Below, piece after piece: positions 48,001 through 51,000 of a DNA stretch of 64,000 bases. How positions within the stretch are numbered: position 1 is the first letter of the stretch; every line of letters begins with the position of its first letter. This DNA is from Lentisphaeria bacterium (lineage in GTDB: Bacteria; Verrucomicrobiota; Lentisphaeria; JABSQK01; JAWLHB01). Location: positions 1 through 64,000 of the forward strand of contig JAWLHB010000034.1 in the NCBI GenBank assembly GCA_041690595.1, read 5' to 3'. Made by a program: the position numbers.

Positions 48001-51000
48001 TCATCCGCGTCACTCCTTTTCGTTCAGGTTCCGGGGCGATTGCCGTAGATTTCAATGTGGGCACGGGGGGTATACCGCCAGCCGCGCCGCAGGCAGATGG
48101 CGATGCACAGTTTCCCGTGTTCGGCCAGTTGCGCGGCATCGATTCCCTGCGGCATCAGGTAGATACGCTGCGGTGGGACCTCGGGTTTGAGCGTCGCGAG
48201 CAGCTGATCGATCTCCGCTTCGTCTTCAGCTTCATTGATGACGAATTTGAACTGGTAGTCGTAGTTCTCCACCCAGTAGGTCAGCGCTTCCGGCACAATG
48301 CGCAGCTTCTCGTGGCTGGCTGCCAGGCGTGGGTCATCCGGGACGGAACTTGCCAGCTTCGGGGAGATCGAGATGAAGTCAGCCTCAAGGGGATTCGCCA
48401 TGGTCCCGTTGGTTTCGATAGTCTGGTAGTAGCCTTCTTCATGCAGGCGCCGCACCAGCTCATGAAGGTGGGGCTGCAACATTGGCTCTCCACCGGTAAT
48501 GACCACATGCCGCACGGCCGGATGCTTGTCGGCCAGGGCGACAACCCGCGCACAGACATCTTCGACCGTCATCAGGCTACCGCGTGCCTCCCAGGAGGTG
48601 TACGGCGTATCGCAGCGCGTACCGTTCCATTGGCAACGAAGATTGCAGCCCGAGGTGCGGACGAAGATGCTGGGGGTACCCAGGTAGCGACCTTCGCCCT
48701 GGATCGAGGCAAAGATCTCGCTGAGATTGAGCTTGAGGGGAGTCATGAAGCAAGTGCCGCGGGTGAGGGGTACGTGAAAATAGCTGGGAAAAGCTGCCCG
48801 ACATTTCCCAAATGTCAATGGTGCCAGAGCGTCATGCGCCGCTTCCTTCTTCCCGTCAACGGAAATGCAGCCATTTCGCGGCGTGAGTGGAAGGTGAATC
48901 TGGCGCAACAAAAGTTGACGTCGGGCCGGGCCGTTCAGTTCAAAGTATGCTTTCGTTGGCGTCGTTCCGCGAGGGTGTTGCGTCAAAAAAAGTTTACGAC
49001 ACCATTGTAATTGATGTAAAAGTCATATAATGTTGCTCGTCATACGGGCACTATAGGACGATGCGAAGTACCCACGATTTATTCCCTATAATCCGACTCA
49101 TGCTGCTGTCCCCGCCGTGGGCAGAGGAGGACCTTTACTACCGCATCCAATCTAAGAGCCGCGCTTCACACTTGCGTGATTTCCTTATTCGCGATATTCA
49201 CGAAGGCCTCTCCGATTCTGGAATTGGAGAGGCAAAAAGGAGGCCCTGTACAGCGTAATGTACACGAAGAACGATCCCATGAAGGCTTATATGCAGGATA
49301 TAGGCGAAATCCCTCTTATCTCCAAACAGGAAGAGGTCGAACTTGCGGCTCGTATCAAGAGAGGGGATCAGTCAGCGCGTGAAAAGCTGATCAAGGCCAA
49401 CCTCCGCCTGGTGGTGAAGATTGCGCATGATTTCAAAGGTTTCGGGCTGCCGCTGCTCGATCTGATCTCTGAAGGGAATATCGGCCTGATGCGGGCGGCA
49501 GAGAAATTCGACCCTGCCAAGGGGGCAAAGTTCAGCAGCTACTCGGCTTGGTGGATCAAGCAGTCGATGCGCCGCGCGCTCTCGCAGAAGAGCCGTACCA
49601 TACGCGTGCCGGTAGCCTCCGCCGGTAAGATCAACAAGATCAAGACGGCGAAGATGCAATTGACAGAGAAGTTCGGCCGCTCCCCCACTGACGGGGAGAT
49701 TGCCGAACACCTCGACCTGACCAAGCGCACGGTTCAGGGGCTGAAGCTCGCGGATTTCAAAACATTTTCGCTTCACGATCCCATTCAGAAGGGCGAAGAA
49801 GGTAGCTTCGAAGACATCATTCCGGATACGAATGCCTGTACCCCGGACATGATCATCGAGGGCAGCGAGAGCATCAACCGCCTCCGCGGCCTGATCAACA
49901 ATCTGGATGAGCGCGAGCAGACCATCCTGGTCATGCGCTATGGCTTGGACGGTAACCGACCCAAAACCCTCGAAGAAGTGAGCAAGACTATCGGCCGCAC
50001 GCGGGAACGTGTCCGCCAGATCCAGATGCAGTCGCTGAAGAAGCTGCGCATGCTGATCGAGGACAACAATCTGGACAATGAGGGCAATCCCGTAGCCAGC
50101 CTTCTTGGACGTCGGCACCGCGGGCGCGATGGCGAGGAAGGCGAATTGGCGGCCACCTTTGCCATTCTCACTCATGCAGCCGGTGATGCGATGGGAGCGG
50201 CCAGCGGCTATGCGGACTCTCGCATGTCTCCCCTTTCCATTGAAGATCTGGCCGACTGTGAGGTTGGCCTGGCAGCACTCAGCATGTCGACCCGCAGCCT
50301 GAACAGCTTGCGCAGTGCCGGGATCAATACGGTGGGCGAGCTGGTCTGCAAGAAGCCGCAGGAGCTGCTGTCGATTCGTTACTTCGGAGAGAAGTGCATG
50401 ATCGAGGTGTTGGAGTCGCTCGCCAAATATCATGAGAGCACCTTTCAGCATCGGTGAGGAGTACCGAACGAGCTGCCATGCCTGAACACGGCTGATGCAG
50501 TCGTGTTTTTATGGCGTTAGGGTTTGTCTCTCGGGTAGTTGACCCTTACATTGCTCACATGCATTTTCCGGCTAAACTAGAAAAGGGGAAGACTATATGA
50601 CTCGGAGCCTGGTCAAGCACAAGCTTGTCATGGCAGGTATGGCGATCACGGTTTTTTCCGCGATCGCTCAGGACGAGAGTGCGCCAATCCTGACCAACCA
50701 GCTGTTGGACGCAGGTGGGATCATACTCAAGATCCTCATTGCGCTCTCGATACTCGCTGTCTGCATGACCGTCTACTTTCTGCTCACGATTCGTCGTGGC
50801 GTCCTGATGCCGGAGTCCTTCCAACGGGAGGCGGAGGATATTGCCGGCCGGGGCGATGTGGAGGCGCTCCATACGATCTGCAATGAAAGCACCGCTGCGG
50901 GTGCCAGGATCATCGGTGCGGCGGCACGCATTCTTCATGAGAATCCACATGTGGACTACATGGCCGTGCGTGACGTTGTCGAGGGCGAAGGTTCACGCCA

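Follow-up and report, generated by a model that had tools for sequence, protein, structure and literature searches.

The window, a 64,000-nucleotide stretch of a Lentisphaeria bacterium contig, contains an open reading frame (ORF) whose product begins as a sigma-70 family factor and ends, beyond a tether, in a copy of the C-terminal domain of the RNA polymerase alpha subunit (alpha-CTD) (Table 1). All four Sigma70 Pfam models (regions 1.2, 2, 3 and 4) exceeded their cut-offs, and the RNA_pol_A_CTD match reached 60.8 bits (E = 1.1e-16) against a cut-off of 23.8. The five domains reported for this 399-aa ORF in the survey's finding were recovered at identical coordinates. Region 2 of sigma factors serves core binding, -10 recognition and melting, and region 4 contains the helix-turn-helix that recognizes the -35 element. 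When the last 94 residues were compared with solved structures, 51 distinct sequences matched at E <= 1, all of them RpoA alpha-CTDs, and the best was 5tw1_A (8.7e-8). The N-terminal dimerisation and insert domains of RpoA (PF01193 and PF01000) were absent from the ORF by Pfam.

Table 1. Features of the sigma/alpha-CTD locus, in window coordinates
Feature	Coordinates	Strand	Remarks
Whole ORF	49258..50457	+	Sigma-70 family factor with alpha-CTD, 399 aa + stop, ATG start
Sigma region 1.2, residues 6-38	49273..49371	+	Pfam PF00140, 49.1 bits; ORF begins 5 residues before
Sigma region 2, residues 44-114	49387..49599	+	Pfam PF04542, 66.2 bits; genome search agrees
Sigma region 3, residues 124-197	49627..49848	+	Pfam PF04539, 64.6 bits
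Sigma region 4, residues 213-264	49894..50049	+	Pfam PF04545, 57.1 bits
Tether, residues 265-331	50050..50250	+	AlphaFold2 pLDDT <50 at 283-320
RpoA-type alpha-CTD, residues 332-389	50251..50424	+	Pfam PF03118; genome search agrees
Candidate promoter region (speculative)	48985..49092	+	A7 run 48985-48991; TATAAT 49026-49031 and 49087-49092, read from sequence

The protein has no region 1.1, its region 1.2 beginning at residue 6. Other phyla have short primary sigmas that also lack region 1.1, so its absence is compatible with a housekeeping role. Among the NCBIfam sigma models the fusion passed the superfamily model TIGR02937 only, with 279.7 bits against the cut-off of 378.7 for the RpoS equivalog TIGR02394 and 258.3 bits against 572 for the RpoD equivalog NF006666. 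It is not an ECF (group 4) factor either, since these have regions 2 and 4 only, whereas regions 1.2 and 3 were also found here. The earlier label 'SigA-like' should be refined, given the missing region 1.1 and the RpoD and RpoS scores below cut-off.

With an alignment of 41 fusions, AlphaFold2 returned a disordered tether (pLDDT below 50) followed by a confident domain, with block means of 95-97 over residues 331-390 and a pTM of 0.34. This agrees with the previous description of a confident CTD behind a low-pLDDT linker. In the fold search with the whole model, which tests residues 1-279 only, the sigma part aligned to SigA and sigma-S chains with Z 19.0 (previously Z 19.5). An example alignment, to 8x6f_E, covered 234 residues at an rmsd of 17.5 A, a value inflated by differences in how the domains are placed relative to one another.

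In its own genome, the alpha-CTD was found at two places, RpoA (contig C28) and the fusion ORF, and Sigma70_r2 at 18. The sigma factors include an RpoD-like protein of 455 aa (C4) and two shorter ones of 295 aa (C10) and 284 aa (C28), in line with the survey's account of a separate SigA-like factor, two shorter sigmas and a normal rpoA. The 455-aa protein is extended N-terminally, carries an HPSRR tail and is present in 15/15 genomes of the order to which the window belongs. RpoA likewise retains its normal CTD in all 15 genomes, so the fusion holds an additional copy. A holoenzyme that uses the fusion sigma would therefore carry three alpha-CTDs, as had been proposed, one from the fusion on top of the two RpoA copies.

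The host genome is a 99-contig draft, and two close homologues lack the CTD (P0051, 316 aa; P0058, 303 aa, whose tail is apparently out of frame). A mis-assembly or a mis-called ORF joining a sigma gene to an rpoA fragment might be suspected on these grounds. However, the fusion recurs in the 14 other genomes of the order (10 genera) and in 59 database clusters, its CTD shares just 44% identity with the genome's own RpoA (over 50 aa by tblastn, the value found before), and it has invariants of its own, such as the C at position 299 in 60/60 fusions. The homologues, the order-wide genomes and these fusion-specific residues together refute an artefactual junction, to which we assign practically no probability.

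The fusion gene was present as a single copy in each of the 15 genomes of the order. In 14 of these genomes the CTD and the sigma domains share an unbroken ORF; the remaining one (G401) has N in the stretch between them, with an unmasked CTD-coding segment alongside. Among the 120 best homologues, 60 have all five Pfam domains, the query being counted among them; they are 375-427 aa long and the other 59 are 55-80% identical to the query, which reproduces the earlier count. The natural, conserved sigma/alpha-CTD fusion observed in the survey is real, as confirmed by Pfam, by its presence in 15/15 genomes of the order and by AlphaFold2.

To judge how far the fusion extends, we considered wider searches. 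The best 30 places in a sample of 401 genomes of the phylum comprised 5 fusions, all in genomes of this order, and 25 places with a CTD-only match, as in RpoA. The motif [YF]FGxKC[LM]xEV occurred at 13 loci in about 185,000 species genomes; 11 were fusions in MAGs labelled Lentisphaeria, Lentisphaerales or Verrucomicrobia, and no sigma fusion was found at the other loci. A CTD-only query among longer proteins gave 23 hits in 489 candidates, all fusions, in a shared-word search that distant forms would escape. In a quick tree with SH-aLRT support, the sigma domains of 21 fusions formed one clade (96) beside the clade of the 295-aa paralogue (98). These results indicate that the fusion arose once, in the ancestor of one Lentisphaeria order.

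The short primary-like sigmas of Lentisphaeria and relatives (about 273-302 aa, labelled RpoD/SigA in public records) are among the nearest known proteins. The sigma part of the fusion is 69-73% identical to them, and 70% identical to the 295-aa paralogue of its own genome. Both groups have regions 1.2 to 4.2 and the same -10/-35 readers and form neighbouring clades, but the short sigmas stop about 10-30 residues past region 4.2, whereas the fusion continues into the tether and the alpha-CTD. Sequence and tree placement thus identify the fusion as a paralogue of this short primary-like lineage. Across the order, the sigma part is 73-90% identical to the window's protein (median 84), RpoA is 64-70% identical (median 66) and the fused CTD 39-67% (median 51). 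By this comparison, the fusion is under strong purifying selection.

The residues of the sigma part that read core promoters are kept. The equivalents of R584, E585, R588 and Q589, which we take to be the -35 readers, and of Y430, W433, W434 and Q437, presumably involved in -10 reading and melting (Q437 and the aromatics), were found in 60/60 fusions. R584, E585, R588, Q589 and Q437 are identical in the 295-aa paralogue. R stands in place of T440 and A in place of Y425 in all 60 fusions, and also in the C10 and C28 paralogues. Where E. coli has R603, 50/60 fusions have E and 8/60 have D. The tether opens with a short acidic tail (IEDxxxDNxG) and continues as a non-conserved linker, with a median identity to other fusions of 12% (84% in the sigma part). 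Its length, taken between the end of region 4.2 and the L260 equivalent, is 56-101 residues (median 75, 60 fusions).

To compare the fused domain with its source, E. coli numbering was set by alignment to K-12 rpoA, and the 60 fusions were set against the 15 RpoA CTDs of the order. The consulted portion of PMC1874639 distinguishes a 265 determinant for DNA binding, a 261 determinant for sigma contact and a 287 determinant for activator contact. L260, R265, N268, G296 and E302 were kept in 60/60 fusions and K298 in 59/60. We take the 265 determinant to consist of R265, N268, C269, G296, K298 and S299. At C269 the fusions have S (38), G (17) or A (3), the S299 position is C in all 60, N294 is changed to Y or F, and K297 mostly to E. 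Because these four changes lie on or near the DNA face, the specificity of the domain may differ from A-tract reading. Some of these residues are lost in two more distant fusions: K298 is replaced by N in P0133 and by Q in P0145, and N268 by S in P0145. In 41 aligned fusions L341, R346, N349, L370, F376, G377, C380 and E383 are invariant. Seven of these had been listed as invariant in 23 fusions; the eighth residue of that list, S344, is at least 90% conserved rather than invariant.

The other two determinants, 261 (acidic D259 and E261, facing sigma region 4) and 287 (residues 285-290 and 315-318), have drifted. Position 259 is D (11) or E (3) in the 15 RpoA CTDs versus A (24), T (10) or E (7) in the 60 fusions; position 261 is E in 12 RpoA CTDs versus K (28), N (10) or R (5); position 286 is E in all 15 versus P (30), E (7) or Q (6); and position 291, K in all 15, is variable in the fusions. 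Across the fusions, positions 286 and 287 have entropies of 2.5-2.9 bits. With an end at about 312-320, the fused CTD either lacks residues 315-318 of the 287 determinant or varies in them. Thus, the 265 determinant is found in the fused CTDs and the 261 and 287 determinants are not, while the RpoA CTDs of the order retain both of the latter. This pattern indicates that the captured domain keeps the DNA-binding determinant and has lost the other two. The survey's reading of the domain as the sigma factor's 'own UP-element/activator-contact module' is accordingly favoured in its UP-element half, since UP-element-binding residues are invariant in the 60 fusions; its activator half is not supported, as 287 and 261 are variable in the fusions and conserved in RpoA. 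Retention of R265, N268, G296 and K298 is what DNA binding would predict but is no proof of it, since the fold in general conserves these positions most.

The fused domain could instead be a protein-docking module for an activator, a regulator or an RNAP-associated factor rather than a DNA reader. In the part of PMC1874639 consulted, the alpha-CTD is a classical activator target through its 287 and 261 determinants, and several residues outside the DNA face are well kept in the fusions (I292 56/60, R293 58/60, F295 60/60, A306 56/60 and Y310 42/60). However, the known activator surfaces (285-288, 258-261 and 315-318) are the variable ones, and R293 and F295, equally invariant in the order's RpoA, are probably structural for that reason. 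The gene neighbourhood bears on the same question. Two genomes of one family have a small co-oriented HTH_17 gene immediately before the fusion gene (L065 7444-7875 and L066 2252-2665), as might be expected of a docking partner. Across the order, by contrast, the only conserved neighbour is a divergent LPG_synthase_TM membrane-protein gene, adjoining the fusion in 9/14 other genomes, and no neighbour gene pointing to a regulon was found. We regard the docking role as unlikely. The ExbB/ExbD/TPR genes downstream in the window adjoin the fusion in 0/14 other genomes, and a conserved operon partner was rejected.

Sigma-70 factors whose function is changed by an extra C-terminal domain are known from the ECF41, ECF42 and ECF44/CorE groups, as far as the consulted parts of PMC3426412, PMC8999054 and PMC7826278 go. 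Their extensions are sensory or regulatory domains (SnoaL-like, TPR, Cys-rich), whereas that of the fusion is a DNA-binding domain of the polymerase itself. By analogy with the regulatory C-terminal domains of ECF41/42-type sigmas (PMC3426412 and PMC8999054, same parts), the fused CTD might be autoinhibitory, folding onto region 4 or 2 of the free sigma until released by core binding or a signal, a behaviour that has been proposed for some ECF extensions. The pre-tether tail is acidic and CTD position 261 is often basic (K or R in 28 and 5 of 60 fusions), so an intramolecular contact could be possible. However, the same acidic tail is present in the 295-aa paralogue, which has no CTD, and a long, non-conserved tether fits reaching out better than folding back. 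Autoinhibition would also fail to explain an invariant DNA-binding determinant among otherwise drifting surfaces. A complex prediction of sigma residues 1-275 with CTD residues 322-399 (41-row alignments) scored 0.11 against a mark of 0.32 and counts neither way. We consider autoinhibition improbable, and more so than docking.

If the fused CTD reads DNA next to region 4, A/T-rich sequence upstream of the -35 element would be its expected target, and we considered the DNA preceding the fusion genes. A consensus promoter scan of 48800-50700 gave no full -35/-10 pair on the plus strand; its one site, on the minus strand, was no more than obtained with shuffles (mean 1.1). A terminator scan of the same interval found none. 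The sequencing runs for 48900-50500 were five sediment-metagenome DNA runs with small shares (0.06-0.15), and no RNA run was listed, a result that has no bearing on expression. The orthologues of one genus have in common A8-N13-TTGACA-N17-TATATT upstream. A/T-richness before the best sigma-70-like site exceeded the local background in 10/15 orthologues, with sites chosen by an automatic pick that missed some visible by eye. The mean A/T excess was reached in 8 of 5000 random-window trials, a figure to be read with four of the 15 genomes coming from one genus. The four clearest A/T-tract cases belong to one genus. Such tracts could equally be read by ordinary RpoA CTDs, and we mention them in passing only.

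In the textbook arrangement the tasks are split: the -10 and -35 elements are read by sigma, and UP-element reading and activator contact fall to the alpha-CTDs. The RpoA alpha-CTD at UP elements of the E. coli rrnB P1 type is a close known counterpart of the fused domain. Both belong to PF03118, share R265, N268, G296, K298 and E302, and sit on a flexible linker with an expected target just upstream of -35. In contrast to RpoA, the fused CTD is joined to the C-terminus of sigma region 4 and not to the alpha N-terminal domain, its tether has 56-101 residues, position 299 is C instead of S, its C-terminal end is shorter, and it does not conserve the 261 and 287 determinants. Engineered alpha-sigma chimeras, in which sigma region 4 is grafted on the alpha N-terminal domain and linker, have been used in transcription genetics. 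Like the fusion, they place alpha and region 4 in one chain and use a tether for a protein contact, but they are artificial and have the reverse topology (alpha N-terminal domain plus region 4). A literature search found no report of a sigma/alpha-CTD fusion. The fusion is assembled from known parts.

Viral sequence collections gave possible parallels. Four viral clusters of the ESM Atlas (53, 87, 98 and 179 members, 194-454 aa) are annotated with Sigma70_r4 and RNA_pol_A_CTD, PF04545 in 98-100% of members and PF03118 in 99-100%; this is annotation only, in rows that give scores (0.83-0.88) without sequences. As annotated, they join region 4 to an alpha-CTD as the fusion does, but without regions 1.2 to 3. 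If they are real, region 4 and the alpha-CTD have been joined more than once, and the same solution would have evolved independently in phages. Querying the ESM Atlas with the whole fusion protein returned short sigma clusters only. In tblastn with residues 200-399 against 50,697 phage records, 0/70 matching records covered both parts. The CTD alone matched 13 records; of three that were opened, two encode alpha-CTD-only proteins and one is a bacterial RpoA mislabelled as phage. No PHROGs family spans region 4 and the alpha-CTD, and a motif scan of IMG/VR found no relative of the fusion. A region 4-to-CTD profile search of proteins of 91-371 aa gave 4 with both domains among 120 listed, all fragments from contigs of 915-1442 bases. 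Phage proteins that end in an alpha-CTD include those of Bacillus phage Goe8 (210 aa) and Mycobacterium phage Zenteno07 (gp68, 166 aa), in which Pfam recognised no sigma region. A stand-alone alpha-CTD protein was also seen in Saccharimonadales.

In the reading that we favour, with a probability of roughly 0.55 judging from the residues conserved among the fusions, the CTD is tethered to sigma to read A/T-rich, UP-element-like DNA on the upstream side of the -35 element. A short, primary-like Lentisphaeria sigma (regions 1.2 to 4.2) gained a C-terminal alpha-CTD copy in the ancestor of the order. In the holoenzyme, region 4 would occupy a TTGACA-like -35 element, and the tethered alpha-CTD would bind immediately upstream, where an UP-element subsite would lie, by insertion into the minor groove of A/T-rich DNA. 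At some promoters this upstream contact may add affinity and selectivity. Being covalent, the tether would stand in for the weak contact between alpha-CTD position 261 and sigma R603 that places the E. coli alpha-CTD beside sigma, which could explain why both sides of this contact have decayed. Because the 295-aa paralogue has the same -10/-35 readers, the CTD is likely to separate the promoter preferences of the two sigmas. The survey's 'new mode of promoter recognition' is at present inferred from conservation. A more extended version, which we hold tentatively and rate somewhat below even odds, is that a three-alpha-CTD holoenzyme carries out some of the order's core transcription. The fusion would then be a near-housekeeping sigma, more conserved than RpoA, with a DNA-only CTD at the UP-proximal position; the tether would replace the 261-R603 contact and the CTD alone would partition promoters between the fusion and its paralogue.

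The fusion unites both promoter readers in one chain, apparently with only the DNA-binding face of the alpha-CTD kept. Together with the stand-alone phage and Saccharimonadales proteins, it presents the alpha-CTD as a mobile DNA-binding module outside RpoA. If the proposed mechanism is true, these bacteria offer a natural test of the promoter strength and selectivity that are gained by tethering an alpha-CTD beside region 4, and the fusion would be a compact, portable part, a sigma with its own UP reader, for synthetic promoters. It would also explain how two sigmas of equal core-promoter specificity share out the promoters of one genome.

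The fusion of a sigma factor with an alpha-CTD is encoded by one open reading frame, and all statements of fact in the survey's finding that we re-ran were borne out. The five-domain layout it had claimed was reproduced at the Pfam coordinates tabulated below. When the final 94 residues were compared with solved structures, all 51 distinct sequences matched at E<=1 were alpha-CTD chains of RpoA, the best of them at 8.7e-8. An AlphaFold2 model built with an alignment of 41 fusions gave confident sigma domains, a pLDDT below 50 at residues 283-320 and about 95 in the CTD, in agreement with the disordered linker and confident CTD described before. 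The fold alignment of the sigma part to SigA and sigma-S chains, also claimed, was obtained again with Z 19.0. No RpoD or RpoS equivalog cut-off was attained by the fusion.

Features of the fusion protein, its surroundings and the other full-length sigma factors (C4, C10 and C28 are other contigs of the same genome)
Feature	Position	Strand	Remarks
Fusion ORF	49258..50457	+	399 aa, ATG start
Sigma70 region 1.2	residues 6-38		Pfam
Sigma70 region 2	residues 44-114		Pfam
Sigma70 region 3	residues 124-197		Pfam
Sigma70 region 4	residues 213-264		Pfam
RNA_pol_A_CTD	residues 332-389		Pfam, E 1.1e-16, 60.8 bits (cut-off 23.8)
Aldo/keto reductase	47000-48139	-
Radical-SAM protein	48024-48986	-	putatively QueE-like, by motifs
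A7 run	48985-48991		upstream of the fusion gene
TATAAT, perfect	49026-49031		34 nt on from the A7 run
TATAAT, second	49087-49092		upstream of the fusion gene
ExbB / MotA-type proton channel	50597..51364	+
ExbD	51378..51818	+
TPR protein	51860..54325	+	821 aa
ORF of 381 aa	54329-55471	+	no Pfam family
ORF with FHA and adenylate/guanylate cyclase domains	55719-56498		the piece examined ended at 56498
ECF-type sigma	57970-58536		189 aa
RpoD-like sigma	C4, 145080-146444	-	455 aa, N-terminal extension, HPSRR tail
Full-length sigma paralogue	C10		295 aa
Full-length sigma paralogue	C28		284 aa

A recount of the 120 best database homologues agreed with the earlier figure of 60 five-domain proteins, the query included (375-427 aa, the remaining 59 being 55-80% identical). 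The other 60 matched regions 1.2 to 4 only, at 69-87% identity, and the named ones among them bear the label Lentisphaeria or Lentisphaerae. Clustering at 50% identity, in a library of 1.84 billion representatives, reduces the close fusions to one representative (P0025) and one fragment (P0238). Thirty of the best 150 representatives, mostly picked for extending well past region 4, were scanned with Pfam; three carried an alpha-CTD. Besides P0238 these were P0133 (371 aa) and P0145 (386 aa), both full-length fusions but more distant. Two close homologues, P0051 (316 aa) and P0058 (303 aa), lack the CTD and have sigma parts 83-87% identical. The tail of P0058 looks out of frame and P0051 stops after a short unrelated tail; the two may have truly lost the CTD, or their gene calls may be truncated or frameshifted.

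When the 30 best-scoring CTD places in a phylum sample of 401 genomes were tested by tblastn, five were fusions, from the sample's five genomes of this order, the present one included, and in the other 25 the match to the query was confined to the CTD, as with RpoA. A whole-order search found the fusion gene in each of the 15 genomes, which span 11 genera; the open frames are 390-437 aa long, and the CTD lay inside one continuous frame in 14 of the genomes. That the fusion is an artefact is refuted, and we give this explanation practically no weight. In G401, the fifteenth genome of the order, two N runs lie between the sigma part and the unmasked CTD-coding segment (L070 5756-6263, on a contig shared with L095), and a short peptide-coding stretch is duplicated, with one copy before and one after that segment. 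When about 185,000 species genomes were scanned for [YF]FGxKC[LM]xEV, a narrow motif that divergent or independent fusions would escape, there were 13 loci, 11 of them in MAGs labelled Lentisphaeria, Lentisphaerales or Verrucomicrobia. Of the other two loci, one, in a Saccharimonadales MAG (L103 2255-2692), encodes a stand-alone protein of 145 aa in which a C-terminal alpha-CTD, retaining R, N and YFGKKC, is the sole domain recognised; the other, a weak match in a Desulfobacterales MAG, has no overlying ORF of at least 100 aa.

The genome carrying the fusion (8.1 Mb, 99 contigs) contains two alpha-CTD places, an ordinary rpoA on contig C28 and the fusion ORF, and 18 Sigma70_r2 places. Four of the 18 are full-length sigmas with regions 1.2 to 4, the fusion being the fourth. 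The top NCBIfam model for the RpoD-like protein was RpoD, at 335 bits and under the cut-off; sigmas of this type, with the N-terminal extension, were found in every genome of the order. A quick maximum-likelihood tree, built from 59 sigma domains, placed the 21 close fusions in one clade (SH-aLRT 96) adjoining a clade (98) of 295-aa paralogues from the same genomes, and long (450-800 aa) Lentisphaeria sigmas were basal. The distant fusions P0133 and P0145 lay on long branches and could still share one origin with the close ones.

Identities across the order were calculated with this genome's own proteins as reference. The sigma part of the fusion was 73-90% identical (median 84%), the 295-aa paralogue 81-86% (83%), whole RpoA 64-70% (66%), the RpoA CTD 66-75% (71%) and the fused CTD 39-67% (51%). 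For the tether, the median identity to the query among the 60 database fusions was 12%. These values indicate that the sigma part is kept as tightly as a housekeeping protein and the tether is free to drift, the CTD being intermediate. Twelve RpoD-like orthologues that aligned over most of their length were 42-49% identical, against 73-90% for the short sigmas without region 1.1.

The fusions were aligned to the annotated E. coli K-12 RpoA record, which provides the CTD numbering; the complete residue lists of its 265, 261 and 287 determinants are in part general background. According to PMC1874639, the 265 determinant binds DNA, the 261 determinant contacts sigma region 4 and the 287 determinant contacts activators. 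L260, R265, N268, G296 and E302 were invariant in 60 fusions and K298 was present in 59; all six belong to the 265 determinant or adjoin it. At or close to the DNA face, the changes specific to the fusions were C269 to S, G or A, N294 to Y or F, and S299 to C (60/60). In the acidic 261 determinant, position 259 is D or E in 14 of the order's 15 RpoA CTDs and A24/T10/E7 in the fusions, and position 261 is E in 12 of 15 and K28/N10/R5, respectively. Position 286 of the 287 determinant and position 291, which neighbours that determinant, are E and K in all 15 RpoA proteins; both are variable in the fusions (P30/E7/Q6 at 286), many of which stop short of residues 315-318. Set beside these variable faces, it seems to us unlikely that the fused CTD serves as a docking site of its own for some regulator.

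On the sigma side (E. coli numbering), the -35 readers R584, E585, R588 and Q589 and the -12 reader Q437 were kept in 60/60 fusions, and the C10 paralogue has all five as well; in place of T440, the fusions and both short paralogues have R. R603, with which the alpha 261 determinant pairs, is replaced by E or D in 58 of the 60 fusions and by E in the C10 paralogue, and is R in the RpoD-like protein. Between region 4.2 and the L260 equivalent the tether spans 56-101 residues (median 75), and an autoinhibitory domain folding back across it is, in our judgement, improbable.

The invariance of the DNA face, the release of the protein-contact faces and the long, unconserved, disordered tether together make the pattern expected of a tethered DNA reader. 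In E. coli, a UP-element subsite is located just upstream of the -35 element. We favor, with a probability of roughly 0.55, the reading that the fused CTD, which its tether links to the tail that follows region 4, would be placed just upstream of -35 and read DNA there. With a covalent tether, the 261-R603 contact would no longer be needed, consistent with decay on both sides. Because the residues that read the core promoter are the same in the fusion as in the 295-aa paralogue, the CTD is an obvious candidate for separating their promoter sets, as judged from sequence comparison.

No conserved operon surrounded the fusion gene when the 14 other genomes of the order were compared. The same-strand downstream cluster adjoins it in this genome only, with ExbB, ExbD or the TPR gene beside it in 0 of the 14. 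A divergently transcribed LPG_synthase_TM gene lies upstream in 9 of the 14 (2 unscored), and a small same-strand HTH_17 gene lies immediately upstream in two genomes of one family. The ECF-type sigma is encoded a few kilobases downstream. The listed aldo/keto reductase and radical-SAM ORFs overlap by about 115 nt, so the TTG start listed in this pair is probably too far upstream. Besides the tabulated upstream motifs, A8(or A6)-N13-TTGACA-N17-TATATT/TATGTT precedes the orthologues in four genomes of one genus (loci L063, L064, L070, L071). Upstream of several further orthologues, an A/T tract lies at about -40 to -60; its reader could be the fused CTD or RpoA.

A full-text literature search that covered few subscription journals found no published fusion of this kind. 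Each of the two parts is a textbook domain; the apparent novelty is that they are joined in nature and that the DNA face has been selectively kept. Many SigA-like sigmas in the representative library start at region 1.2 and have C-terminal extensions of 100-300 residues (P0148, P0136, P0140, P0142-P0144, P0147, P0149 and others). That of P0148 (400 aa) contains an HTH_28 domain; most other tails had no Pfam domain above cut-off and no match to the alpha-CTD profile. Among group 1/2-like sigmas, additions at the C-terminus may be commoner than usually stated. A C-terminal alpha-CTD is the sole recognised domain in gp68 of Mycobacterium phage Zenteno07 (L106 1195-1695, 166 aa) and in a 210-aa protein of Bacillus phage Goe8 annotated 'RNA polymerase subunit alpha' (L107 1081-1713); both are stand-alone proteins. 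L108 751-1701 ('Bacteriophage sp.') was rejected as a phage alpha-CTD; it is a complete bacterial-type RpoA (PF01000, PF01193 and PF03118), and its scaffold is probably bacterial in whole or part.

The ESM Atlas holds viral clusters (53, 87, 98 and 179 members, 194-454 aa) with Sigma70_r4 and RNA_pol_A_CTD by annotation only (scores 0.83-0.88), and our searches outside the ESM Atlas recovered no such viral proteins. If these clusters are real, the joining of region 4 to an alpha-CTD would have happened more than once and the architecture would be less unique, the full-length sigma version still being so.
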